Below, in pieces: positions 3,228 through 24,491 of a stretch of DNA of 64,000 bases. The stretch covers positions 192,001-256,000 of the forward strand of contig CAWGVG010000060.1 in assembly GCA_963825865.1 (NCBI GenBank), read 5' to 3'. Under the pieces are notes generated by a model. The model was not told the origin of the DNA. It ran no database searches and saw nothing but the letters and a program-made list of their open reading frames with translations. Each line of letters begins with the position of its first letter. The first letter of the stretch is position 1. Origin of the DNA: an uncultured Nitrososphaeraceae archaeon. GTDB taxonomy: Archaea; Thermoproteota; Nitrososphaeria; Nitrososphaerales; Nitrososphaeraceae. Both the position numbers and the translations under genes were made by a program.

Positions 3228-4502
3228 ATGCAGTCTCAAGAAACAGATGAGTCTTGGTCATTTAAGGAATTAGGAAGGGCTCAAACTTCATACCTCACTC
3301 ATGATTATCATAAATATCCTGCTAAGTTCATCCCTCAATTAGCAGAAAGGCTGATCAAAGATAACAGTCAGCCTGCAGATCTTATTTGTGATCCCTTTAT
3401 GGGTTCTGGGACTACAATGGTCGAAGCTATTTTAAACAGCAGACGGTCATATGGGACTGACATAAATCCTGTATCAGTATTGATTACCAAGGCCAAGACA
3501 ACCCCTATTGAACCAGGTTTTTTGAACTCTCAAATATCATCATTGCTCAGGCGAATTAAGGCAGATATTGAAACTAAAGATGGACAGGTGTTTCTTCTTA
3601 AAGCACAGGATTTTGAGGTCAGAGTACTTGATAATAAAAGAATAGACTACTGGTTTCCAGAAAAACAGAAAATAGATCTGGCAGTTATATTGTCCAGGGT
3701 TAATTCTATATACGATCATGAGGTCAGAACCTTCTTACTTTGTGCATTTTCTAACATTTTGAAAGGATGTTCAAGATGGATGATGAAATCTGTCAAGCCG
3801 ACTATAGACAAGCACAAAGTAATAGCAGATGCATACAAGAATTTCGTCCTTCAAACCAAAAGAATGGTATTAAAAAACGAAGATTTTTGGAAGAGGATCG
3901 GCAGAAATGAAGTTGATTGTACTATAGACAATAAAGACGCTCGCAAAATGAAAGTTCAAAATGAATCTACCACATTGGTCATTACTAGTCCTCCATATGT
4001 TACTTCGTATGAATATGCAGATCTGCATCAACTCACTGCTATTTGGCTAGGATATACAAATAAGTTATCAGATTTTAGAAGAAAATTCATAGGCGCGATA
4101 CAGAAAAATAATGTTCACGTTAAACTACATAGTAAACAAGGAAGGGAAATAGTAGATGAACTTTGGCCAGTTAACTTTAGAGACGCCAAAGCAGTCGAAC
4201 AATACTTCTTTGAAATGCAGGAATGTTTCGAAGAAATGTATAGAATTGTTAAACGAGGAGGACGGATATGCATAGTTATTGGAAATACAGAGTTGCGAAG
4301 AATTAGCATTCAGAATACAAATGTTTTTGTTGAGACAATGGAGGAGATAGGATTAAAAACTCATAAAATTATCAAACGACCAGTTCCAAGTAAGATTCTT
4401 CCTTTAACCAGAGATGAAAGGACGGGCCGATTTTCTGCAACTGTAGCAGCAGATAGGTTGTCTTACCCAATCGAATACATCCTCATTATGGAAAAAGTCT
4501 GA
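3228..4502 (+). CDS. DNA methyltransferase, N4-cytosine type (motif I before motif IV), orphan
   Basis: THDYHKYPAKFIPQ, motif I DPFMGSGTT, catalytic motif IV TSPPY; no restriction endonuclease next to it. Confidence 0.9.
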   Translation: MQSQETDESWSFKELGRAQTSYLTHDYHKYPAKFIPQLAERLIKDNSQPADLICDPFMGSGTTMVEAILNSRRSYGTDINPVSVLITKAKTTPIEPGFLNSQISSLLRRIKADIETKDGQVFLLKAQDFEVRVLDNKRIDYWFPEKQKIDLAVILSRVNSIYDHEVRTFLLCAFSNILKGCSRWMMKSVKPTIDKHKVIADAYKNFVLQTKRMVLKNEDFWKRIGRNEVDCTIDNKDARKMKVQNESTTLVITSPPYVTSYEYADLHQLTAIWLGYTNKLSDFRRKFIGAIQKNNVHVKLHSKQGREIVDELWPVNFRDAKAVEQYFFEMQECFEEMYRIVKRGGRICIVIGNTELRRISIQNTNVFVETMEEIGLKTHKIIKRPVPSKILPLTRDERTGRFSATVAADRLSYPIEYILIMEKV

Positions 4503-4575
4503 GTTTTACCTCGAAAAATCAAACAGTGTTTAGGTTTACATTTTAACTGACGACGTCTTATGTATACTTTAAATG

Positions 4576-4893
4576 TTAGCTTGTTGTATCGAGACATTTG
4601 CATTCTTCAAGAACAGTTTCATAAGTTGTCAAAGGAACTATCTTTATTTCATTAAACTTTGACCATTCTGATTCAATCATAAACCTCTGTATTGAATGAG
4701 CACTTTGTGCATTTACTATCCATAGAAATGTGTGTTCCAATCCAGAATGATAACGATTAAGTATGTTTGCATTGTTTCTATCGGCAATTTTGTCGAGATG
4801 TTCATCCATTTTTATGACGAGCCTTCTATTCTCTGCATTGTTTAGTGGGCAGCTTTCCACAGAATGTTTTCCGAATATGCCATACATAGCCAT
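4576..4893 (-). CDS. Conserved hypothetical protein (DUF3303/GYD-like)
   Basis: 105-aa ORF with H-x4-CP start and EH-x-F-x-W-I-V-x-A pattern. Confidence 0.5.
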   Translation of the reverse strand: MAMYGIFGKHSVESCPLNNAENRRLVIKMDEHLDKIADRNNANILNRYHSGLEHTFLWIVNAQSAHSIQRFMIESEWSKFNEIKIVPLTTYETVLEECKCLDTTS

Positions 4894-5478
4894 GCGTATA
4901 TGTAATTATTCTGTATAGATGCTATTAATAACAATTTGTTGATTCACATGTATGTCTACATTAATTACCAACTTAACATTTCAGTCAGAAACAAGAATGA
5001 AGTTAAAAATGATGAAAAGATAATATTTGATATCTTGTTGTTTATCAAATCCTCTTTTATGCTTTGCTTGCAAACAGCAGTTGATCAATTGTGACAGCAC
5101 CTATTATTCAGCATCTGCTTGTAAGAAGCCAAATTGTGAACCAAAGAGAATTATATCAATTTCCTAAGCGCGTATATGTTGAGGTAAAAATAGCAGTACT
5201 TTTGCAGGAAATTTGGAATTTCTTAAAGTGAATCAAGGTGGGTGCTACATAGGTCCAGCCACCTTTTTACGGAAACAACCCGCTGCACGGTTTGTTAAAA
5301 AAATACAAAATACTCTACTTTTAATCTGAAAAAGCCTCCATAGCTCATCTTTTATTGTTTATAATATAATTATCTTCACACGATTACAGTAGCAGGGCGT
5401 GTACTGTAAATAGATAAATGTATATATATATCTACAGTATATATATTCGAAAATATATATTAACGAAGAAGAGATGGA

Positions 5479-5736
5479 TTATCTGTTATTTCTGTGCAAT
5501 GATATTCTATATACATACTTATTATTGTCTGGATTTTTGCCATACATTCCCCATATTTCTTCTAACTGTTCACCACTTATTTTTATAAAAAAACTATCAT
5601 ATTTTTTAGTCTCTTTAAACCGTTCTTTGATGTGATCTACCAAGTATTCATTACTAACAAATCGTAAATAGTCAGGAAGCTCATTTGTCTTTTTAATAAT
5701 ATCGCTAAGCTCTACGCTCTTCATACTTCTGGTCAC
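5479..5736 (-). CDS. Hypothetical protein
   Basis: 85-aa ORF with protein-like composition; no motif recognised. Confidence 0.45.
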   Translation of the reverse strand: MTRSMKSVELSDIIKKTNELPDYLRFVSNEYLVDHIKERFKETKKYDSFFIKISGEQLEEIWGMYGKNPDNNKYVYRISLHRNNR

Positions 5737-5989
5737 CGACTTTCTAATGCCTTTTTATTAAATAAAACAACCGGTGTCAAATCTTTATGACACAGTTCAT
5801 ATGTTATATTTATTTTCTTTAGACCATCACTTAAAATGCATACACAGCAAATGTAAAAGGTCTTGCTGGCGGAGTATGTAAGGAAACTGGATCTTCACAT
5901 CTGTCATTATCAGCAAATAATTATCAGATGATCATTATACGTGTTGGTGAAAGTTACGATTCAGCGTGCTAAAATATGTAGATAAAAAT

Positions 5990-6249
5990 TTAGAAATCAC
6001 TCCAGCTTTACCGGTAATAGACGTGCAAAAAATGGCTTTGCCATCAAGGACACTTTGGTAATTGAAATCTCAAAATATATACAAGGGGTTAGTAGCGTTT
6101 GCCATTTGATCGATATCTGTAGAAAGTCAGAAATTCCAATCTTTTTTATACATACCATACGCGAATCTTCTGGAATAGAATTTTTAGCAAGTTCCACAAA
6201 ATTCTGCCAAGGTTCAGAGGAGGATAGTGAGGAGTACCATAACCATTAG
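5990..6249 (+). pseudogene. Isochorismatase/cysteine-hydrolase N-terminal remnant
   Basis: PALPVIDVQ(shift)NGF..LIDICRKSEIPIFFIHTIRE resembles ALLVIDxQNxF...LxxxxRxxxxPxxF; catalytic C-terminal half absent. Confidence 0.55.
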
Positions 6250-6337
6250 AGGCTAAAGGGGATGATGTAAAAACAGAAAGTAGAGAAGAAAGATTCATAC
6301 AGATTATTTGTTACAAATAGATGGAACATTCATATTA

Positions 6338-7624
6338 TTATTTATTATCTATGTCTTTTGATTTAGAAGTACTTGCAGCTAACGGTGCTCTGCCATTTAT
6401 TATTATGCATCTGTATAACCAAGCATGCTGCTCTGCAACTATATCCCACTTCAGTTTTTCCTTAAAGCTAATGACTCTTTGCAAGTACTCTTCATAGTAC
6501 TTATCAAGAGCTCTCAGAGCGTTGGCAAATGCAGGAGGATTTCGTTTAACAGTTATACCTAATCCTTTTGAAGAAAATTCTTTAAAAAAGCCTAAGTCAG
6601 TTGCAACAAATGGTAATCCATGGGCAAGGCCATCAAACATCACCCCGGAACCCGCACTTACTTTATACGGAAGTATTAGTGCATCAGCTGCATACAGTAA
6701 AAGAGATAACTCTTCATCACTAAGGAAACCCTTTTGCAAACAGACTATATTGCCAGTTTTCTTTTCCAACCTTAGAATAATCTTTTCGTCGTCCAAGCCA
6801 TACTCATTTTTTGAAGAGTTTATTATGATATTCCATCCATCAGGAATTTGCATATTTTCTAGAATGTCCCAACCCTTAACTGCAGTTCTAAAACCAACGG
6901 CAAGTGCAATTCGCCCATCTTTCGGGAGAGAAAATTTTGTTCTTGCTGCTTGCTTTGTTGCAACATTTGGTATAGCTGGTTCAGCACCATGATAAATTAG
7001 TTCACCACCGCCAACCATTTTTGCCATATAGTGAGAAAAAACTATGCCTGCTTGACTCTGCTTTAATTTCAGTTTATCTAATTTACGAAGAGAGCTGTAA
7101 TTCAATATATACTTCCAATATTCAATAACAGTACCTAATTTTCCGGTTTGACTGGCTGACTTGACCGCTTTTACTCTGCTAACCCATTGCTTAAAATTAT
7201 AAGTAGAATGAAATGTTGTAACTATCGGTGTCTTGCACCGTTCGTAAAATGAATCAATATTCGTACTGATCCTTCTTGGATTGATAGGATCCAATTTCAA
7301 TCCATAAGATCCGTGTTCATATTGCACATGTACGATATCTGGATGTGATTTATCTACTATTTTTAATAAGGTATCTGAATTGTGCACATTTGTCGGTGAA
7401 AGCCCAAAGAATTGTCCATGGCCCTTTTTATTACACGCTACGTATACTTCACAACCTAACTTCATCAGATTTTTGGTCAAGTTATATGTATAACGTCCTA
7501 TACCTCCTTTTATCGGCGGATACTCTACTGAGACCATCAAGATACGCATTGTTTTTGCTTTTGTCCCGATCAAGTCCTTTGCTCCCGTTGCAACGTAGCC
7601 ATCGATCTCAAGGCTCTTAACCAA
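6338..7624 (-). CDS. Glycosyltransferase family 4 (GT-B)
   Basis: MRILMVSVEYPPIKGGIGRY, PDIVHVQ, KGWDIL, ADALILPY..GSGVMFDGLAHGLPFVATD; true start may be the Met of MRILMV. Confidence 0.9.
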   Translation of the reverse strand: MVKSLEIDGYVATGAKDLIGTKAKTMRILMVSVEYPPIKGGIGRYTYNLTKNLMKLGCEVYVACNKKGHGQFFGLSPTNVHNSDTLLKIVDKSHPDIVHVQYEHGSYGLKLDPINPRRISTNIDSFYERCKTPIVTTFHSTYNFKQWVSRVKAVKSASQTGKLGTVIEYWKYILNYSSLRKLDKLKLKQSQAGIVFSHYMAKMVGGGELIYHGAEPAIPNVATKQAARTKFSLPKDGRIALAVGFRTAVKGWDILENMQIPDGWNIIINSSKNEYGLDDEKIILRLEKKTGNIVCLQKGFLSDEELSLLLYAADALILPYKVSAGSGVMFDGLAHGLPFVATDLGFFKEFSSKGLGITVKRNPPAFANALRALDKYYEEYLQRVISFKEKLKWDIVAEQHAWLYRCIIINGRAPLAASTSKSKDIDNK

Positions 7625-11392: not shown

Positions 11393-11425
11393 AATGTAAT
11401 AAATATTACATTATTTATACTTTTC
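11391..11425 (-). promoter_or_regulatory. hsp20 promoter: BRE/TATA plus 10-4-10 palindromic operator
   Basis: Minus strand GAAAAG-TATAAATA about 20 nt before the ATG; perfect inverted repeat ATAATGTAAT-aaat-ATTACATTAT at 11391-11414. Confidence 0.6.
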
Positions 11426-11489
11426 TTAATTATCACAAAGAATTATTACAATTAAACAGTAGGCGAATACACGGCATTGATTCCTCAAG

Positions 11490-11700
11490 CCATAAAGACA
11501 GATTGTGTTATAGGAATTATTTACAAAGCGGATAATGGTATAGTATAGCAGTATAGCCGCTCAAATGCAGTATCGGTAATACAGCACAACTAGTTGTGTA
11601 ATAGCAACAATTCCCGTCGGCATAATCCTAATGGAATAATATAGAAATACTAACAATGGAATAAATCGTTTTTCCAATAATGTGACTCAACCGATACCGT
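11490..11700 (+). pseudogene. YVTN beta-propeller repeat remnant
   Basis: GIIYKADNGIV*..SNAVSVI(shift)STTSCVIATIPVG(shift)NPNGI fits the GIAYNPDNGxVYVxNxxSNTVSVIDxxTNxVIATIPVGxxP repeat. Confidence 0.5.
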
Positions 11701-11798
11701 TTGGAACAAGCCGTAATGCGAAAGACAGCATCTAAGTGACAAATAGCGTCTAAAATATTGTTTCTGCAATCAGCGAGCTTATAGATGCACTTCAGTGC

Positions 11799-11963
11799 TC
11801 AGTGTATCATATTTTTATTCTTTTTTCTTTCTCCTCTTCCAGAATGAGCCTTTTTTTGATGTATATCTAATCTCTTTTCGTCCTGAAATGTCATAGTACA
11901 TTTTTTACATTTGATAACTGTATTACCAGTTATTTTTCTTTTTCTTTTGAACAATAAACTCAT
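11799..11963 (-). CDS. 54-aa C2H2 zinc-finger microprotein (not in ORF track)
   Basis: MSLLFKRKRKITGNTVIKCKKCTMTFQDEKRLDIHQKKAHSGRGERKKNKNMIH: C-x2-C-x3-F-x5-L-x2-H-x4-H. Confidence 0.75.
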   Translation of the reverse strand: MSLLFKRKRKITGNTVIKCKKCTMTFQDEKRLDIHQKKAHSGRGERKKNKNMIH

Positions 11964-12618
11964 TTTGCAGTATAGATGTATAGAATGCCTTATTAAGATT
12001 GAGTAATGAAGTTATTTTATAATTATACTCCCTAAATATGAATTTAACGACATTAAACTTTGAGTGACTCTGTCCCTTTAGAAGTAAAGTAACTTTTAGC
12101 ATTCATAAAGACTATTAGGAACGATTACCCAGAACTCCTATAATCTCTTGCAGCATCAGTTTGAATCACATAGGGTTGAACAAAAAATGGATTACGTTTC
12201 ATTGCTTACTGTTCTGTGGATTGGGTCCGTATCTAGTGGGAAATATGACCTAGATTCATTATCACGAGTTTTCTATCGTGTCAATATTCAAGTGGATCTG
12301 ATCACATCATAATTACACGTTTTTGTATTTATCACTACCCACGTTACGTGAGGTGGTTTTTGGAAAGTTTTTTGAAACAAATTTGTACATCGTTTTGAGC
12401 CTTTTATACCCATCATTAAGTTTTTTTTACTTTATAAAACTTTTGACAAAAAATCGTTAAAACTTATCCTTATTGCGTTCATTAATGTATTTGTCTAGAG
12501 TCATAACATACGCCAGAAAATAATCTCTCTTTAACAATATATTATTATGTCACATACGGTGCGATGCATAGCATAAGGAATTTTTAGCTTATAATCTTAT
12601 ACACCATAACAAGTGAGC

Positions 12619-12846
12619 TTATTCAACTTCATTGAATGATTGACAATTCGGACACTGAAAGACTGCATCTGAGGCTATTTCACCTTGAGAAACATTTTCA
12701 ACAATAATGTTGTTACACCTACCACAAATATAATCTATATCACCTTTTCCCACCATAAATGGTTCAATCTTACTGCTATTCTTTCTGTATATGGGCCTTG
12801 TTCCTTCTTGAGGTTCTGGTATTAGCCTGCAATTAATTCGAGGCAA
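12619..12846 (-). CDS. Small zinc-ribbon protein
   Basis: YICGRC...FQCPNCQSFN (two CxxC pairs). Confidence 0.65.
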   Translation of the reverse strand: MPRINCRLIPEPQEGTRPIYRKNSSKIEPFMVGKGDIDYICGRCNNIIVENVSQGEIASDAVFQCPNCQSFNEVE

Positions 12847-13505
12847 ATTCTTCCTTCTCTTACTTTCAAGATAGTATCTATTTAAGGTTCTTTAGTGAAT
12901 TTCTATTGAAGCGCTAAAGGTCTTGTTGTTATTGTTCTTCTTCTTGTTCACGCACAACGACAGAATTTCAGGTAGGTCAATCAAGAATTCTAAGAATATT
13001 GAAAATTACTAGTGCATCTGGTAAATATATGAATAATAATTTTAGAGCAATAATGAATTTTGCAATCCTACTGACTCTTATACTACAGCTATGATTGGTT
13101 TTGTATTACATTAGTGTTACTAATGTTAGTTGTACCAAAAATTAGCGTTGCTTCCTTTTGCTGTCGATGCAACCGTACCAGCGATTACTAAAATAGACAT
13201 CGTGAACATGGAAAAACTTTGACAAAAAGCAGTAATCATTACAAAATTGCAATATGTATTATTATATATTGAGTATATGGATTTCAAAATTAGGATTATC
13301 TCCAATGCACTCAGATCCTGTCTAAGATGATTTTAGTTTGGTTATGCATTAGTATTACAATATCGTGGATGTCCATAGTGCTTGCCATTTTTGAGGTATT
13401 TATTTGAAAGAATAGCTCAGGATAAACAGGTAGAATCATACAAGGTGGAGATATTGTATATTATATATATAATTAGCCGATTAACTTACAGCTGATAAAT
13501 AAAAT

Positions 13506-14144
13506 ATGGGTTTTCTGTCATGGGTACGCTCCAATGATAAGGAGATTATTGGCGTATTAGAAGAACAGGCTGCAATTTTAATTAAGGCAACATCAGCCTT
13601 GGTTGAATTTATGTCAAATTATAAAGTGGATGGCGAATCCAGATCCAAGATAATAAAGGATCTAGAGCACGAAGGGGATATAATTACCCACAAATTATTT
13701 ACAATCCTAGATAAAACCTTTGTAACTCCTCTGGATCCCGAAGATATATCCAGACTCACCAGTGCGATACATGAAGTGCTGGACGCTACTGAAGGAGTCG
13801 CCAATAGATTTGTGCTGTTTATGATGCGAGAGCCTACACCATACATGGTAGAACTTGCAAAACTATTACTTTCAGCTTCCCAAGAAGTTCAGCGGTTGGT
13901 AATGCGAATAAGAAGCTTAAAAAGCTCAAGTGACCTAATATATCATTGTAAAAATATAATAAACTATGAACATCGAGCAGATACCATCTATCGTACAGCC
14001 ATTGCAGAATTATTTAAAACAAACAATGCTATTGAAATAATAAAGTTAAAAGAAATTTATGAGACCCTCGAGGGTGCCCTTGATCGGTGTGCTGATGTTG
14101 CTGATGTTGCAGAAGACATTGCCCTAAAATATGGCAATGGGTGA
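13506..14144 (+). CDS. DUF47 family phosphate-transport regulator (PhoU-like)
   Basis: IKDLEHEGDII, TFVTPLDPEDI, EHRADTIYR, IYETLEGALDRCADVAD. Confidence 0.9.
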   Translation: MGFLSWVRSNDKEIIGVLEEQAAILIKATSALVEFMSNYKVDGESRSKIIKDLEHEGDIITHKLFTILDKTFVTPLDPEDISRLTSAIHEVLDATEGVANRFVLFMMREPTPYMVELAKLLLSASQEVQRLVMRIRSLKSSSDLIYHCKNIINYEHRADTIYRTAIAELFKTNNAIEIIKLKEIYETLEGALDRCADVADVAEDIALKYGNG

Positions 14145-14475
14145 GCAAATAAGCAAATGGTTTTTTAGTGTTGTTGTTGGATATGTCGTTCGTTATTGCT
14201 AACAGCTTGTCATGTTAAGATTTATTATTTATGTTAAATTTGTAAATATAACAGATAAATAATCGTATCCTGGAAAATTAACAATTGCCTTCAACTTTGG
14301 TTTCATATATCTGTTCATCATATCTTAATATGGAACATTAGTTGCACCACATACTTCATATAATCTTGCCTCTTTCATTTTATAAAGAAGGTAGCTTTCC
14401 TTTATTATACGTGCTGAGCTTTTATTTTTATAAAAGAGCATAATTTTTTTACCAGTTAATTCAACCTGATAATCA

Positions 14476-14952
14476 TTGTCATTGTGGTACTCAGCAGGTA
14501 TTGGTTTACTTGGTGGTATAATGGCCACTGTTCTCATGACTATGATAGAGACGCCCTTGTGGAAAAGATGGGGCCTTCACGGAGTGTTTGAATGGCATGA
14601 GAATCAGGTTATTACAATGCGTGTATTTCATCTTTCAGATAAAAGTAAGATTCACTTTAAGGGAATCTTTTTCTTTCATTTCCTCAATGGTGCTTTAGCA
14701 GGAATAGCTTTTCCATTTATTGCTTCACCCTTTACAATTGTTTTCCATTACATGATACCCTTGGGAGGCATATATGGTATTATACTATGGATTCTTACTC
14801 TTGGACCGATACATAAGCCAATAACTGGATTTTCACCATGGAATCATCCTTTGGGTAGCCTACCGACACTAGCAAGTCTTGGAGGACATGTATTGTATGG
14901 TATTGTACTTGGAATCGTAGTTTCTTCGTTGATGGGACAAAATGTTGTCTAA
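14476..14952 (+). CDS. Conserved 4-TM membrane protein
   Basis: Four hydrophobic segments with conserved-looking His residues (HFLNG, GHVLYG) and WGLHGVFEWHENQ loop. Confidence 0.7.
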   Translation: MSLWYSAGIGLLGGIMATVLMTMIETPLWKRWGLHGVFEWHENQVITMRVFHLSDKSKIHFKGIFFFHFLNGALAGIAFPFIASPFTIVFHYMIPLGGIYGIILWILTLGPIHKPITGFSPWNHPLGSLPTLASLGGHVLYGIVLGIVVSSLMGQNVV

Positions 14953-15232
14953 TGTCAACCAATTTCTTTGATCATTAGTTATCGGTTGATATAGTTTCTG
15001 AAATTTCAATTACAATTTATTAAATCAATGCGTTTCAAAAATAGTTGATATATCATTGTTGTTTTTTCTGCTGTTAACTATTACGTTTTTTTATTAATAT
15101 GTAGTCCGGCCTATATAGAATACCCATCTTGAGTATATTATCGCTTTCGATAAAAATTATGATCGTATTATGGTAGAGATGAGTTTTGAGTCATAAATTA
15201 AAACTTACCAATAGATAGTTACAAGAGACCAT

Positions 15233-15451
15233 CTAAGGTAAGGATCTGCAGAATGAGCTGGCTCTTTGTTGTTCCACCCTTACCCAACCCTTACCATCAC
15301 AACAATTGCATCTTTCTTCACTTCGTCGTGGCAGTGAAATACAGAAAGAATTTAGACAATCATTACTGTTATTACTGTTATCTTCTTTACACTGTACAGA
15401 GCCTGATCCATGGCACACATGACACTTTACAACATCACTAAATAAGGTCAA
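15233..15451 (-). CDS. Small protein with DnaJ-type CxxCxGxG zinc motifs
   Basis: CHVCHGSG and CNCCDGKG. Confidence 0.6.
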   Translation of the reverse strand: MTLFSDVVKCHVCHGSGSVQCKEDNSNNSNDCLNSFCISLPRRSEERCNCCDGKGWVRVEQQRASSFCRSLP

Positions 15452-15470
15452 TGGAATAGCTGATCTCCTA

Positions 15471-15656
15471 TCAAAAACGTTCCTCGGTTTTTGATACCTT
15501 TAATGGATCTGGAATTTTAATTATATCACTATTTTTTCTGTGAATTGTATTTAAAAGCTCACATTCACAATCACTATTTATCCTAACATATCTTCCACAA
15601 TTCGCACACAAGACATACTGGGGATCGTATTCCTTTGCATAGAGAGCAATTATCAT
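15471..15656 (-). CDS. Small Cys-rich (zinc-ribbon-like) protein
   Basis: CANCG..CEC; AT-rich TATA-like upstream region; co-oriented with 15233-15451. Confidence 0.5.
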   Translation of the reverse strand: MIIALYAKEYDPQYVLCANCGRYVRINSDCECELLNTIHRKNSDIIKIPDPLKVSKTEERF

Positions 15657-16117
15657 AATATTATATTTACTCTGAAATATATAAAATTTACTTATTATCC
15701 TATTTAATCGAAATTTACTTATTAAAGTTAATTGTTTGTTTAATATTTATATGTATTTTAATACAAATGTAAGGATTCTACAAATATGATAAAATGGATT
15801 CTGCTTTAATCATTGTTTATTTAATTTTGGAAAGGACAATAATTTAATTAGTTCTGGATAATTCTCATTGTCGACCGGAACATTATGTTCCTAATAGAAT
15901 CGTGGCAGCCAGGAGCTTTAACCAAAGTGGCGTTGAATGTTTTATTTAATCAATATCTACAAACTAAGGATACACAGCTTCAGCAGAATGGCATTATGTT
16001 ACATCATTCTATCTAACATTCAAAGACTAAACGTGCAAGAAAAGTAGCGATACCGGTCAAAAGAGAGGAGGAGAAGAAGAAGGAGCACTTAGATATCGTA
16101 AAGTACGATATTGAATG

Positions 16118-16501
16118 TTATTCTCTTATACCTTCAAGGTTTGATACAACCTGCCATAGCATCGTTCTAATATGCGATTTCATTGCCTTGTCTTGTGTCA
16201 GTCTATCTAGCATGCTAACGGCATTTGCCGCTCTTACAGATAAGCTAAATTTTTGCTCTTTATCTTTCAATAAAACAAGTAATTCATTTATACTACCTTT
16301 TATACTTCTATTAACTTCACGATAATGATTTCGATTTATATTTTCAAGTGTCACTATTGCAGCATTTAAATTTTCGTGGTTAGTCTTATTCTGTAATAGT
16401 TCTTTTTCTTTCTTTGTTGTTCTCTTATGGGGTGTGCCAGCTATTGGTGTTGTTTTTTCTATGTCTGTCATAGTGAACTTTTCATTATATGTGCATGCCA
16501 T
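16118..16501 (-). CDS. UPF0147 family protein
   Basis: SVRAANAVSMLD..QD..M.SHIRTMLWQVVSNLE. Confidence 0.85.
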   Translation of the reverse strand: MACTYNEKFTMTDIEKTTPIAGTPHKRTTKKEKELLQNKTNHENLNAAIVTLENINRNHYREVNRSIKGSINELLVLLKDKEQKFSLSVRAANAVSMLDRLTQDKAMKSHIRTMLWQVVSNLEGIRE

Positions 16502-16709
16502 TATAAATTAATATGTTCATAGTGAATTATGAAATATAAATGATATTTGGACTACAAAATCTGGAAAAAGGGAAACAGGTTGGTGGAATGTCGGAGCAGA
16601 TTTGACTCATATTTACCACGTAAAAGAGCATTTTTCATAAATCAAAAGATGATGATCATCATTATTATTAGCTCCAACAAAGATATTTTTGCGGTACTTT
16701 TGTAAACAT

Positions 16710-16841
16710 CTACTGCTTGTAACATTTCCAATGTTCATATTGTTTTACCCCGCCTCCTCCTGCTTTATCAACTTCTATCATATCTTTACAATATCTGCAC
16801 CGAATGGGAGCCTTTTCAATACTCTCCTGTTTTCTGTTCAT
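16710..16841 (-). CDS. 43-aa CxxC...HxxC zinc microprotein (not in ORF track)
   Basis: MNRKQESIEKAPIRCRYCKDMIEVDKAGGGGVKQYEHWKCYKQ. Confidence 0.45.
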   Translation of the reverse strand: MNRKQESIEKAPIRCRYCKDMIEVDKAGGGGVKQYEHWKCYKQ

Positions 16842-17749
16842 TTTTATTATATTTATGTACATATGTTTCTAATATTTTTATAACACAACGATTAGCCATC
16901 AATATGATTGGTACTTTCTTTAGAAGTCTATCAATTGAAATAGCGATTAATACTTCGGATTCTTTTTTCTATTGTTGTCACTAAATGCCAAAAACTCAAT
17001 TCTATCATATCATCTAGGCTACTGTATTCATATACTGTTGATGTTTGTCTATTGCAGTTTTTGTTTTTATGGTATTTTGTAATTTGTAGTTTTTCTTTCA
17101 TTTTTTGTTTCAAACCTCAAGTCCTTCATGAAAAACAGTAAGATTTTTTTCTCTTCAATCAAAAGAGTAAGACTTTCTCTCGAAGAAATTATCTACGTAA
17201 AAAGTTTAATCAGGATTGAAAGTGATTCTATGCAATAAATTCATCAGCTTGTAAACCATATGTGATGAGTATCACAAGTACAACAAACCTGAAGCAACAA
17301 CAACTAAAAAACAACAAATAGCAGGTAAAAAGAATATAAAACAACTATTCATAGCGCAGTGTGAAAATTGTTATTGACAATTTGAACTACTGTATATGAT
17401 TATTTAATTTGAAAAATGTGTTAGTCACTCTATGCTCCTGACTTAAATAGTGCCCTTCCTGAAACAACAATTAGTAAATTAAAGTCTGGAGAATAAAACT
17501 AATATTTTATTACGAAGAATAAAAAGAATAGAAACATGGGATTAATTGAATTTTTATTCTACCCAACTATGATTATGAAGTGAACAGATGTTCTATATCT
17601 CATCAAGTATGAGGGCTAATAGTAGACACAGCTATCATTATGAAACGCTTTGCTAATCATAATCTCTTTATATAAATCATAAGGGATTTTTATTAAATTA
17701 GAATAGTAAGTTACAAGATTGCTATAGATGTAGGAAACCTGATATTGGT

Positions 17750-18031
17750 ATGAGAGATAGAGACAAACTGAATTAATTGCATCTATTCTAAAAGCCACCA
17801 ATGAAAGAAATGTAAATGCGAGCACAAATAATGTATAAGGCATTTTTATCATATACCCGGATGAAACAATATGTATCAATATTAGTTGATGCGGGCTTAA
17901 TAAAATATCAAGAAGGAAATCGAAGAGCTTATAGAATAACTGACATTGGAATGAGGTTTTTACATTTACACAATCAGCTTGGTGAATTGCTTACCAATCC
18001 TTCCCACTCAAAAACAGTTATTATACACTAA
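17750..18031 (+). CDS. Winged helix-turn-helix regulator (HTH_45/DUF4364-like), frameshifted N-terminus
   Basis: MRDRD/TELIASILKA../MRAQIMYKAFLSY..KQYVSILVDAGLI....YRITDIGMRFL. Confidence 0.75.
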
Positions 18032-18081
18032 TAGTTATGAAAGAGTAAAAATCAGAGAATCAGCATATTTTGATTCTTGTT

Positions 18082-18478
18082 CTACACCTTGGCAACACAC
18101 CTAATCTCGATCATGAGCTCCGGGAACGCAAGACGCTGAATTTGCACGATGGTGCTTGCCACAACTGGGATGCCGAAAAAGACCTCCTGCCTGCATTTGA
18201 CTGCCGCGGCGAAGGCCGCCTCCATATCCGTCACGAAGAGTATCTCATCGGCTATGTTATCCATCGTTGCCCCATACTGTGCGAGCACCTTCCGGATGTT
18301 GGCATATGCCTGGCGCATCTGTGCCTCCATATCTCCGAGACCGATGATACTGCCACCTGTCGTCATGACTCACCTGCCCAGATAGATAGATGGTGTCCCC
18401 AACTTTCACCGCCTGGGCGTAACCGTACTCTTTCTCCCAAGGCATACCAAAGCTCTTAGTTTCCTTGTCGATTGTCAT
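18082..18478 (-). CDS. RidA/YjgF/YER057c family protein, GC-rich, one frameshift near 18355; putative integron gene cassette
   Basis: PWEKEYGYAQAVKVGDTIYLSGQV / MEAQMRQAYANI..FVTDM..PVVASTIVQIQRLAFPELMIEI; bacterial-type RBS AAGGGAG 7 nt before ATG; 53% and 63% GC in two counted 60-nt lines versus AT-rich flanks. Confidence 0.88.
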
Positions 18479-18510
18479 AATGTGTCTCCCTTAATGTTAA
18501 TTGTGAAACT

Positions 18511-18569
18511 TCCTAACGCATAAGCTAACCAGCGCGAATAGCGCATCCGAGTTGAGTTCCATGTTAGGC
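18511..18569 (-). mobile_element. attC: Integron attC recombination site (59-base element), solitary
   Basis: Minus strand GCCTAAC-ATGG-AACTCAAC-TCGGATGCGCTATTCGCGCTG-GTTAGCT-TATGC-GTTAGGA: R'' RYYYAAC, L'' with an extra C, GC-rich central stem, L', R' GTTRRR; exactly 59 bp. Confidence 0.8.
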
Positions 18570-18994
18570 ATATCCAAAATCCTTGGGTCTAGGTGCAGCA
18601 CCCATCATGTTTTTTTATGGAGTTAGTTAATAATAAAGTTATTTGACAAACTTTATACTATATCTAATTAATACTGCCACATTTCTATAACTAACTGTTC
18701 GTGGTATATATAAACAAATTGAGTAAACGTGGTCATATACGTTGGATCAACAAGATAAGAGAAAATTAAAAATAATAATGGCTATAATAGCTGCGAGTGT
18801 AATGGCAAGAATATTAATATTTTATATAATTTCTAAATAGATAGCCTCCTGTTCGTCTCTAGCAAATAAAGGTATTGACCTCTCCTATATACGACCAGAA
18901 TGCTTCTCTTAGATCTGTGGTAACCTATTGAATTTCTACAATTCATACAATAGAGTTTAAACCTAGTAGTGAGCTCTCAAAGTGTCATCGTTCT

Positions 18995-19213
18995 ATGGAC
19001 AATCTAGTTGCAGCTTTCGTTACGTTAGTGATAATGTTGTTTGTGGGAATGGGAATTCTGATGGTTGGACCTGCTAACGTTCCTGTTATTACATCACATG
19101 CTGGATTATTTGCAGTAGTTATGACTTTAGCATCTGCCTTTCTGGTTATAGGTTTGGTTGGACTTACAGCGATAGGATTTATTATAGTTTCAAAGGAAAA
19201 GGAAAAGAAATGA
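18995..19213 (+). CDS. Small 2-TM membrane protein
   Basis: Two hydrophobic helices and a basic tail; TATA-like TTTAAA upstream. Confidence 0.6.
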   Translation: MDNLVAAFVTLVIMLFVGMGILMVGPANVPVITSHAGLFAVVMTLASAFLVIGLVGLTAIGFIIVSKEKEKK

Positions 19214-19665
19214 CCGATTGAAGGTTATGTATATTGCATCGTGATGAGGCTAGTCTAATTCTTTTCCTCATAGCATGTTCTTTGATAGTTTGAACGGTTA
19301 GTGACAATACACTAGAGATGTGTCAGACGTATTCAAAAATCTATTTGCACCTGTTCCAAACTTATTGAGTAAAATATCAAGAACTCACTTTAATTGTTAG
19401 AGTTACTGCAGAGATTTTTTATACTTTTATAGTCCGATGCATTATCCCAAAAGTAGATCGATATTATATTATCTTGAGGAGCTTCAGTTTACCGATGCCT
19501 TCAAACAACAAACATGCAAACTAAGTGACACTATTCGAGAAAACAGTTTATTCCCCTCAGGAGATATGACCCCTTTTAATCTTTGAGTATTTTATATGGT
19601 ATAAGCATACTTGGAAATAGTTGGATCACCTAGATATATTGTAGGGATGTACTGAGCAATTTACT

Positions 19666-19884
19666 TCATGTTCTACTACGTATATTTTCTTCTATTCTAT
19701 ACAAAGCTGTGCCGATATAATCATCAGTAATTAATGATGGTATATCAATACAACATGTTTTGGGAAGTAGTGAGTTAATTTTGTATAGAATTTGAACCTT
19801 CTTATCTATATCTAACTCATTATAGCAATCTTCAACTAGTTTTGAGATCATAGCATGGTTGTGTATTGTTGTAGCCGTAGTCAA
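19666..19884 (-). CDS. Hypothetical protein
   Basis: 72-aa ORF, helical composition (PSLITDDYI motif). Confidence 0.5.
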   Translation of the reverse strand: MTTATTIHNHAMISKLVEDCYNELDIDKKVQILYKINSLLPKTCCIDIPSLITDDYIGTALYRIEENIRSRT

Positions 19885-19908
19885 TTTGTTACTATCGACT
19901 CCTGATCC

Positions 19909-20082
19909 TTAGCAAATGTTTATTTTACATGTTTCGCATTTATCTGTTATAGACCTTCTATCCGGTGAAAATTCAGCTTCCATTTTCATATGTGCAAAAA
20001 GTAGGCCATATTGCATACATTGGCGAATATGTAAAATTACGTGATTTCTTATGCTCTTGATAGTAGATAATCTTATGTTCAT
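19909..20082 (-). CDS. 57-aa hypothetical protein, degenerate zinc-finger-like
   Basis: MNIRLS..RQCMQYG..DKCETCKINIC; co-oriented upstream of 19666-19884. Confidence 0.3.
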   Translation of the reverse strand: MNIRLSTIKSIRNHVILHIRQCMQYGLLFAHMKMEAEFSPDRRSITDKCETCKINIC

Positions 20083-20199
20083 ATCTATGTATTGCTTATA
20101 AAATATAAAAAGAGTTGCATACTAATGTATATGCTTAACTACTTCTTATGTATATACTTATATATTTCTATATTTTAAGGGTATATGTAGCAATTCAAT

Positions 20200-20394
20200 A
20201 TGACCTCCCAGACTAAAACAAAATTATATAAAGTTGAGTCTAAATCGGCAAAAACAGGAGTAAAAACTTATAGACATTCGATATTTTTAGAAAAGGCTTT
20301 TGTAGAGGATAGTTTATTTCCTTTCAAACCTGGTGAAAATTTGATGGTAAGGATAGATAAAGATAGACTAATTGTTACAAAGCTCAAAGATTAA
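20200..20394 (+). CDS. AbrB/MazE-like swapped-hairpin DNA-binding protein
   Basis: HSIFLEKAFVEDSLFPFKPGENLMVRIDKDRLIV. Confidence 0.6.
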   Translation: MTSQTKTKLYKVESKSAKTGVKTYRHSIFLEKAFVEDSLFPFKPGENLMVRIDKDRLIVTKLKD

Positions 20395-20789
20395 ATGGGT
20401 TATATCCTTTATTAAATGAGCTCATCGGATACTTAACGATCGAATGCTATGCGTTACTTTTTCATAAATCAAAGTCAATTGATGAAGTTAATTGAGCACC
20501 CAATATCTTTCGTTTACCCCATCTGCTTTGATATTTAATTCAATAGCTGCTTGAACCTTCTGAAACGAATTTGAAAGCTTGACTTCGGCGAGGTTTCATG
20601 AATATTGTAAATGCAGATAGTCTAGAATAAGTTCGATAAAAAAGCAAAATATCAAAACAACCGAACCCCTTTACATGCGAGACTTAATCCAGCGTATAAC
20701 AGTACAGCTAATAGGATATTTTGAAGTCATTGTAACCTTCCTTTTCTATATTAAAAGAATGCTTCATTTATCAAAGAAGGGTTGCAAGC

Positions 20790-20915
20790 CAACAATAAGG
20801 AGACTTTTCGCCATTTTTTAGCTACCAGAACAATACGAACATTCGCGTATAGTTTTTTGAGCGTAATTCTTGCAATTTATCTGAAACTAATTGAATTTAC
20901 CGATCTGTATATTTG
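20790..20915 (+). pseudogene. MFS transporter N-terminal remnant
   Basis: FLATRTIRTFAYSFLSVILAIYLKLIEF resembles the first helix of archaeal MFS permeases; no continuation. Confidence 0.45.
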
Positions 20916-21201
20916 GCTTTGATGTCATTATCAGGAGCAATATTTTTGTAACAAGTAGCTACATAGCATTAATAATATTTGCCGTCATTGGAACAATTAA
21001 TGTAACTGGAGCTGAAAATGGCTCTTCTTTCAATAGAACAGGCAATACCATCCCAAACAATCAATTATACCAAAAAAAAGTGCGATGCTATTTGTTACTA
21101 TTTCTTACAAAAATCACAAAATGACTCGATAGCATTCAGTTAAGGTAATCAAAGAGCAACTAGTATTATATATTTTGTAACACTAAAGTGAGAGCCTAGA
21201 G

Positions 21202-23867: not shown

Positions 23868-24491
23868 ATGACAATATCAATAGACAAATCCATAGAAAAA
23901 GAAAAAGAAAACACAATTCAAGCACAAAGAAGACCATCAACATCCAAGAAGCATTAATCCTAAACAGACGGTCTTCCAGGTCTATGACAGGAGAAGAATT
24001 AGATGAGGATACTATAATGAGTCTTTTTGAAGCTGCAAGGTGGGCACCAACATCCTACAACAATCAACCATGGAGATTTATCTATGCCAAGAGAAATACT
24101 GAGAATTGGAATAAACTTTTCAATTTGCTAGCAGAACCCAACAAAGTGTGGACAAAAAATGCTGCTTTGTTGGTTGTAGTAGTATCAAGGAAAAATTCCG
24201 AATACAATGAGAAATACTCTATAACACATAAATTTGATGCTGGAGCTGCTTGGGAGAATATAGCTTTAGAAGCGTCATCAAGAGGATTGGTAGCACACGG
24301 AATGCAAGGATTTGATTATGAGAAAGCAAGAGTAGATTTGGAAATCCCAGATAACTTTGATGAAATGGCTATGATTGCAATAGGAAAGAAAGGACCAAAA
24401 GAAAATCTCCTAACAATTGCAAAATAAAGAATTTCCTAACGATAGAAAATCATTGAATGAAATAGTGATGGAAGGCACATTTAGAAAATGA
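23868..24491 (+). CDS. Nitroreductase family protein, frameshifts near both ends
   Basis: LILNRRSSRSM, LFEAARWAPTSYNNQPWRF, FDAGAAWEN, HGMQGFD, AMIAIGK; tail PNDRKSLNEIV in a shifted frame. Confidence 0.85.

Follow-up and report, generated by a model that had tools for sequence, protein, structure and literature searches.

By what route did a GC-rich gene of the Rid family come to lie in the AT-rich chromosome of an ammonia-oxidising archaeon? That ammonia-oxidising archaea have received bacterial genes is a frequent conclusion from trees and composition, and the vehicle of such transfer is, to our knowledge, almost never visible. An earlier note on this DNA had read the gene, together with the 59 bp ahead of it, as a fragment of a bacterial integron cassette array acquired across domains. 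The present study followed up that reading in the whole 64,000-nucleotide stretch that was analysed (the window), in the genome that carries it and in homologous loci from other organisms.

The only direction of archaeal integron traffic that we know to have been tested is the recruitment of archaeal cassettes into bacteria. In the available parts of their paper, Ghaly et al. (2022) report integrons from nine archaeal phyla (75 MAGs), together with experiments in which bacteria recruit archaeal cassettes and 8 of 9 archaeal attCs recombined with attI1 (PMC9668308). The terms 'Nitrososphaer' and 'Thaumarchaeota' are absent from the main text of that paper (PMC9668308), and its supplementary tables might list such genomes. 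The literature matches listed include no report of an attC relic or of an integron-derived Rid gene in the Nitrososphaeraceae.

Materials and methods

Searches for attC sites were performed with a home-made covariance model (R1) trained on 11 real class 1 cassette attCs and containing no Rid-family sequence. Six of the 11 training sequences are near-identical, the structure was supplied by hand after the fold of the aadA1 site, and the resulting E-values are rough. All real attCs were taken from class 1 integron arrays in plasmid records. Besides the window and the genomes, the model was run on 160 loci with Rid homologues (876 kb). Contigs of other sequencing runs, two of DNA type (X1 and X3) and one of RNA (X15), were compared with the window; a further run, X2, has no cover over 17600-18721 and is uninformative for the locus.

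An attC-like element ahead of the Rid gene

The minus-strand sequence that the earlier note had given for the element matches the window letter for letter, and the ribosome-binding site and start codon that it had placed nearby are also there, AAGGGAG lying at 18492-18486 and the ATG at 18478, 32 nt past the last base of the element (Table 1). The R'' end box follows the RYYYAAC consensus and the R' end box follows GTTRRRY at 6 of 7 positions, with six complementary pairs between them, and no other such pair of boxes occurs in the window. Candidate L'' and L' boxes can be recognised, carrying a mismatch and a bulge; the 5' module is low at 5.8 bits and the 3' module normal at 10.2 bits. The site had been described as drifting toward AT, in part on the final A of R'. 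Within an array, an R' box is a hybrid of two cassettes, and this A need not be drift; the site folds weakly and is read as a relic.

Upstream of the element, a putative promoter is placed at the AT-rich, TATA-like stretch. A small frame (20-80 codons, stop to stop) runs through the element on the minus strand at 18497-18601, and its stop lies 16-18 nt upstream of the Rid start in most of the loci that share the leader. This frame may encode a leader peptide, may be the end of the preceding cassette's ORF, or may have arisen by chance.

Table 1. Coordinates of features at the Rid locus of the window and of attC-model matches in homologous loci
Feature	Coordinates	Strand	Evidence or remark
Window: Rid (YjgF/YER057c/UK114) family gene, 131 codons, split by an extra base	18082..18478	-	PF01042 on both pieces
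Window: extra base breaking the Rid reading frame	18356..18356	-	left out in all depth of the X1, X3 and X15 contigs
Window: proposed 5' part of the Rid cassette, beginning at the TT of R'; 5' UTR containing a Shine-Dalgarno-like AAGGGAG (18486-18492)	18479..18510	-	UTR alignment with L108 and L117
Window: proposed relic attC of the cassette formerly preceding the Rid cassette; R'', L'', degenerate central stem, L', R'	18511..18569	-	covariance model, aadA-type similarity
Window: upstream part of the conserved unit; TATA-like AT-rich stretch (18626-18638) and start of the small open frame	18570..18650	-	homology with archaeal loci
L071: attC-model match	1411-1474	gene strand	54.2 bits; 118 nt downstream of the Rid gene
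L117: attC-model matches	252-332 and 1302-1383	gene strand	39.7 and 23.8 bits
L168: attC-model matches	897-984 and 196-273	gene strand	38.3 and 17.6 bits; Rid gene flanked on both sides
L056: attC-model matches	5464-5549 and 4755-4840	gene strand	37.7 and 19.8 bits; Rid gene flanked on both sides
L046: attC-model match	1494-1578	gene strand	28.0 bits
L108: attC-model match	257-337	gene strand	23.6 bits

With filters off, the covariance model returned a single significant match in the window, covering the element over its full length on the minus strand (25.8 bits, E 4.8e-4), and the runner-up reached only 10.2 bits. In the 5-Mb genome, the element was likewise the only match at E<=1 (E 0.037, with 150 of 281 candidates scored). 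A search of 60 other family genomes under stricter filters, in which 82 candidates were scored in each, gave no match at E<=0.1. When the model was applied to eight real attCs that had been left out of it, six were detected at 15.3-50.0 bits and two were missed; 25.8 bits is therefore an ordinary score for a genuine attC, and it exceeds those of four of the six detected sites.

Similarity to the aadA-type attCs extends over the whole length of the element. Its global similarity to them stands at z 5.0, with none of 500 shuffles as high, and the better-kept archaeal copies as a set (the window element, L100, L107, L010, L016 and L104) gave z 4.2-5.8, again unmatched by any of 500 shuffles. Fixing both end boxes still left the same set with z 2.1-4.9, namely 3.2 for the window element and 4.5-4.9 for L107 and L010, and the more diverged archaeal copies reached z of only 1.2-2.7 against the aadA-type sites. 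Combined, the genome-wide unique match of the home-made model and the whole-length similarity bear out the earlier note, which had seen an attC laid out like the short aadA-type sites and had proposed a covariance search of this kind.

Simpler searches were less informative. End-box weight matrices alone do not discriminate, as 54 genome sites score at least 16 bits and are as good as the element. Two sites elsewhere in the genome (C46:60679-60810 and C5:105308-105444) that pass these matrices and a fold filter had no match to the covariance model at E<=1 and are probably false positives. A scan by the earlier note's own attC rules recovers only 2 of 11 real attCs, so that its negatives on the homologue loci and its genome counts (15 sites observed vs 24 in the shuffled genome) carry little weight. 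Rfam at E<=10 gave no match over 17500-19200. This null says little, since Rfam is not known to hold an attC family. A BLAST search of the GC-rich island and the element against 72,556 plasmids returned only distant Rid genes and chance matches at E 2-7.

The homologous loci place Rid genes of this kind beside attCs. Across the 160 loci, every model match at E<0.01 is next to the Rid gene and on its strand, and the matches other than the sites of Table 1 are archaeal copies of the element only; an IntI-like gene was found in none of the 160. L071, L056 and L046 belong to MAGs labelled Myxococcota and Cyanobacteria, and for L108, L117 and L168 the contigs are unbinned, with a GC of 51-56%. Protein identity to the Rid of the window is 84% for L108, 82% for L117 and 73% for both L168 and L071. 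The sites of L071, L108 and L168 and the upstream site of L117 fold at -17 to -27 kcal/mol, and the third L117 site folds no better than shuffles, though it has 23.8 bits in the model. The cassette of L168 opens with bases complementary to R'' in its downstream attC, as the cassette model requires.

Two pairs of these loci are of interest for the movement of the cassette itself. The same Rid cassette, at 92% protein identity, is found in L056 (4755-5549, a cyanobacterial MAG) and in L168 (196-984, an unbinned soil contig). Additionally, the Rid proteins of L071 and L073, from MAGs labelled Myxococcota and Binatia respectively, are 99% identical, with the 54-bit attC in L071 only, suggesting either recent cassette movement between phyla or a binning error.

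The window shares the register of the cassette-borne genes. The distance from the end of the attC to the start codon is 32 nt in both the window and L117 and 36 nt in L108, and L', the spacer, R' and the UTR of the three align column by column, including a common 14-nt UTR block that is present in L046 too. By this register and by the UTR homology with L108 and L117, the Rid gene has its cassette start at the TT of the R' box. Upstream of R', the elements of the window, L108 and L117 are unrelated, as they should be if the cassette ahead of the Rid cassette differed from array to array. A donor array with the same upstream attC was not found.

The 59 bp might instead be a native archaeal leader or small upstream ORF that came to resemble an attC by chance. 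This explanation draws on the weak fold of the element and the lack of covariation described below, on a frame that stays open through the element with all four length differences among homologues being multiples of 3, on the 54 equally scoring end-box sites and the unfavourable rule scan, and on a leader motif found in Nitrososphaeraceae records only. It does not account well for an element that is the one match in the genome to a model trained on unrelated real attCs, whose interior likeness to aadA-type sites persists once the end boxes are fixed, and whose L' and R' stand in the same register as those of L108 and L117 with a homologous UTR behind them. Moreover, the small frame evolves almost neutrally (pN/pS 0.5-1.2 vs 0.10-0.21 for the Rid gene). 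We therefore consider a chance resemblance unlikely.

Weak folding of the element and lack of an integrase

The element folds weakly, at -7.5 (bottom strand) and -7.3 kcal/mol (z -1.4 and -0.5), and its bottom-strand fold is no better than that of 17 of 200 shuffles. The real aadA1 attC, of 60 nt, folds at -18.8 and -18.3 kcal/mol (z -3.9 and -3.6), and six real 60-nt attCs gave -14 to -19 kcal/mol by the same bottom-strand measurement. A hairpin test passed by 9 of 11 real cassette ends is failed by the window on both sides of the gene, even by the best 80-nt stretch upstream. The same test picked out strong hairpins next to the Rid gene in a few GC-rich homologue loci, and the elements of L117 and L108 have two ends resembling canonical attC ends. 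Of the 19 pairs that the covariance model lays on the element, it marks 6 as non-standard.

The archaeal copies point to decay of an attC. In 22 archaeal homologues, the proposed pairs are kept in 69.0% of cells vs 69.2% in shuffles, with no covariation, and RNAalifold predicted zero pairs on the archaeal leader homologues, giving no support for a riboswitch or structured leader. Among the same 22 copies, likeness to an attC is graded from 20.7 bits to negative values and the 3' module is kept longest, which is the pattern of a decaying relic. Scores of the covariance model on archaeal copies run from 28.9 bits (L098, L100 and L101) through 23.5 (L107 and L144) and 19.4 (L010) to 13.9 (L104). 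The best reading of the element is a decayed relic attC that has kept its boxes and lost its stem, and it would also have lost its recombination activity.

The genome, which is 82% complete, yielded no IntI: the best match to TIGR02249 has 38 bits vs a cut-off of 265, and tblastn with IntI1 gave one weak match (33% over 97 aa). The covariance model and the end-box search found no second attC-like site in the 64-kb window, and a 3' attC of the Rid gene's own, sought downstream of 18082, appeared neither as a model match nor as a hairpin. The earlier note had reported that the window has no intI and no downstream attC, and on all of these searches that statement holds. Under standard criteria, as given in the available parts of two papers, a locus counts as an integron or CALIN if it has an IntI gene or two or more attCs spaced by less than 4 kb, and singletons are excluded (PMC9668308, PMC9024848). 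The locus, with no IntI and no second attC, is neither.

A site of this kind could still be a working attC, usable by an integrase in trans, and the locus a live single-site integron remnant. Both R boxes and L' are intact and the 3' module scores like those of real sites; the score of the whole element lies within the range of detected real attCs and above most of them; and archaeal attCs recombined with attI1 in the experiments cited above (8 of 9; PMC9668308, available parts). Set against this are the non-standard pairs, a fold far short of that of real sites, pairs that decay freely among the archaeal copies, a genome without IntI and a window without a second site. We judge continued activity to be quite improbable, and hold to the reading of the element as a decayed relic.

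The Rid gene is probably intact and under selection

On the split gene, PF01042 matches at profile positions 10-31 and 36-120 of 121, and the intact homologue finds Rid structures in the PDB, the nearest being 5v4f_A (E 2e-13). The protein falls below the curated cut-offs of the subfamilies, with 52.5 bits vs 106.25 for TIGR00004 (RidA), and it stays below that of the RutC model as well. The earlier note's RidA-family gene is thus a member of the Rid family (PF01042) and not an archetypal RidA. In one source, the close homologues are named 2-iminobutanoate/2-iminopropanoate deaminase. Most likely the gene encodes an enamine/imine deaminase that removes reactive intermediates, an activity that is predicted here, since the protein lies below the RidA and RutC cut-offs.

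As assembled, the gene consists of two ORFs, 18478-18257 and 18366-18082, a break that the earlier note had missed. An alignment with 13 homologues attributes it to one extra base, and this base is absent from the contigs of all three covering runs, the DNA-type runs X1 and X3 and the RNA run X15. A 131-aa database protein (P0002) is identical to the Rid protein at 127 of 131 positions, with all four differences at the break. Relative to the window, the X1 and X3 contigs show further indels at 17764 and 17820 and only 0-1 substitutions over 523-806 nt. The frameshift is probably an assembly or consensus error.

The further indels concern a neighbouring ORF. Positions 17764 and 17820 lie in or near an ORF at 17816-18031 (+), where X1 and X3 each show one insertion and one deletion relative to the window. 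This winged-helix ORF matches HTH_45 at profile positions 23-74 of 77 only, and it has probably been truncated by an assembly indel of the same kind as that in the Rid gene.

The Rid gene has a pN/pS of 0.10-0.21, indicating purifying selection. A contig of the RNA run X15 covers 18088-18640 at a depth of 56 vs 2.4 on the flank, suggesting that the gene and the relic are transcribed together; such RNA contigs are blind to transcript ends, and graph branching may cut them at the edges of the unit. With purifying selection, presence on an RNA contig and a frameshift that is very probably an artefact, the gene is not decaying.

Foreign composition and continuity of the island

The composition of the locus departs sharply from that of its surroundings. 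In 300-nt windows, GC is 0.47-0.55 over 18000-18599 vs 0.27-0.37 on both flanks, and the Rid gene has 53% GC in a window of 35% overall. Its GC3 is 0.67, compared with 0.24-0.33 in seven host ORFs of the window, so that the GC-rich gene of the earlier note is indeed compositionally foreign. The host assembly is 82% complete with 2.8% contamination and encodes an archaeal AmoA (383 bits). As AmoA is encoded and the flank of the island at 19675-20396 recurs in other genomes of its family, this host belongs to the ammonia-oxidising archaea.

Both edges of the island are spanned by contigs from other runs, those of X3 at 17612-18418 and 18389-18903 and those of X1 at 17916-18439 and 18506-18825. 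Since both junctions are bridged, the region is not a chimera, a point on which the earlier note had advised a check. That a bacterial fragment was misjoined into an archaeal contig, as the abrupt GC jump, the assembly indel errors and the contamination of the bin might suggest, is hardly credible given these bridges, a contig of at least 256 kb around the unit, the flank common to the family and the same unit in AT-rich contexts in many Nitrososphaeraceae records.

Distribution among the Nitrososphaeraceae

The conserved unit is single-copy in this genome and extends over 18080-18650, its homology ending at 18079-18085 for all 156 matching loci and at 18642-18650 for the closest archaeal loci. 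No terminal repeats or target duplications flanking it were found. In other family genomes it is patchy, being present in 19 of 60 and in 8 of 18 genera (that of the window counted), and it lies in differing neighbourhoods across the archaeal loci. The archaeal Rid copies are 78-89% identical to each other at the protein level.

The closest relatives of both the gene and its leader are in records labelled Nitrososphaeraceae. Of the 154 loci with enough upstream sequence, 25 share with the window the 170 nt that lead up to the gene and contain the element, and all of these that are named belong to Nitrososphaeraceae, to whose records the leader motif is confined. Several Nitrososphaeraceae have the relic and some 80 nt ahead of it in common, so the uptake is not private to this genome. 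The earlier note had looked to bacterial closest homologues lying next to attC sites: the closest homologues are archaeal, and homologues beside attCs do occur in bacterial-type contigs. Two trees, on 131 columns, supported neither a direction nor a number of transfers.

Several features of the neighbourhoods may be recorded here. In one archaeal locus, L016, the unit lies between mobile-element-like ORFs (3558-4605 and 5917-7011); those on the upstream side are split, and the downstream one encodes a coiled-coil-like protein of 364 aa. In the window, the region around the island (11400-21200) has a low coding density and many short ORFs without family matches, and the window holds no tRNA gene. 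A nitroreductase-family ORF at 23984-24427 (+), RutE-like and below the cut-off, lies 5.5 kb from the Rid gene and divergent from it, and in the archaeal loci L025, L064 and L161 a nitroreductase homologue is found 443-674 nt upstream of the Rid gene and co-directional with it. Among the 160 loci, only 7 have a neighbour of this family next to Rid.

Proposed origin of the unit

Overall, we think it likely that the Rid gene originated in an integron cassette and arrived along with the attC of the cassette before it, now a decayed relic. The earlier note's cross-domain cassette-array fragment would then be essentially right, with the amendments that the uptake is not private to this genome and that the closest homologues are archaeal. 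The unit would be a domesticated piece of a cassette array, in which the attC of one cassette is followed by the neighbouring cassette as far as the stop codon, and the Rid gene with its 5' UTR would be a former cassette that began at the TT of the R' box. The fragment may have entered a Nitrososphaeraceae chromosome from an integron-bearing donor of about 50-58% GC, most likely a soil bacterium; this direction, from a GC-richer integron-bearing donor into archaea, is read from the composition and from the relic. The downstream attC of the Rid cassette itself would have been lost after entry, and the unit would then have been inherited or exchanged within the Nitrososphaeraceae. With no integrase to use it, the attC would have kept its boxes and much of its sequence and lost its stem. 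The roughly 80 conserved nucleotides upstream of the relic fit less readily and were counted against the cassette reading, as was the open frame through the relic with its frame-preserving indels.

If the gene did come from a cassette, the vehicle of the transfer has left its mark here, as an attC and a cassette boundary before a gene that is under selection and on an RNA contig in soil populations. The locus would then be a testable case of traffic in the opposite direction, into an archaeon, followed by domestication, in a lineage important to nitrogen cycling in soils. It also suggests that single relic attCs can be recognised with homologous cassettes as a guide. According to the available parts of the survey papers, standard surveys omit single attCs because false positives are frequent among them (PMC9668308, PMC9024848); single attCs can nevertheless be true, and CALINs are thought to be degraded integrons (PMC9024848). 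Because standard integron surveys discard singletons, footprints of this kind go unseen. More speculatively, and with doubt, the cassette arrays of soil bacteria might be a recurrent donor pool of accessory genes for ammonia-oxidising archaea, with decayed single attCs as footprints, some of them perhaps still substrates for an integrase in trans. Should such relics still serve as integrase substrates, cassette traffic between the domains would run both ways.

Comparison with known integron systems

The element is closest to the short (~60 nt) aadA-type attCs of class 1 integrons, sharing with them a comparable length (59 nt), the R'' and R' ends, candidate L boxes at the usual spacing, a short distance (32 nt) to the next start codon, sequence similarity and a full-length covariance match. 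It differs from them in its degenerate stem (-7.5 vs -14 to -19 kcal/mol on the bottom strand) and in its setting, being without an integrase or array, located in an archaeal chromosome and carried with the gene on one RNA contig. The protein shares PF01042 with the Rid family and lies below the cut-offs of RidA and RutC, its activity being predicted.

Among the IntegronFinder categories, as described in the available parts of PMC9024848, the locus resembles CALINs and single attCs in having an attC-type site beside a cassette-like gene without IntI. Unlike a CALIN, it has one site, below the default threshold of two (PMC9024848, same parts), its host is an ammonia-oxidising archaeon, and it is common to related lineages. 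With the integrons of archaeal MAGs, as presented in the available text of PMC9668308, it has in common the presence of integron components in Archaea and of cassettes that cross domains. In that study bacteria recruit archaeal cassettes, whereas the footprint described here points into the archaeon, where the cassette appears to have been domesticated.
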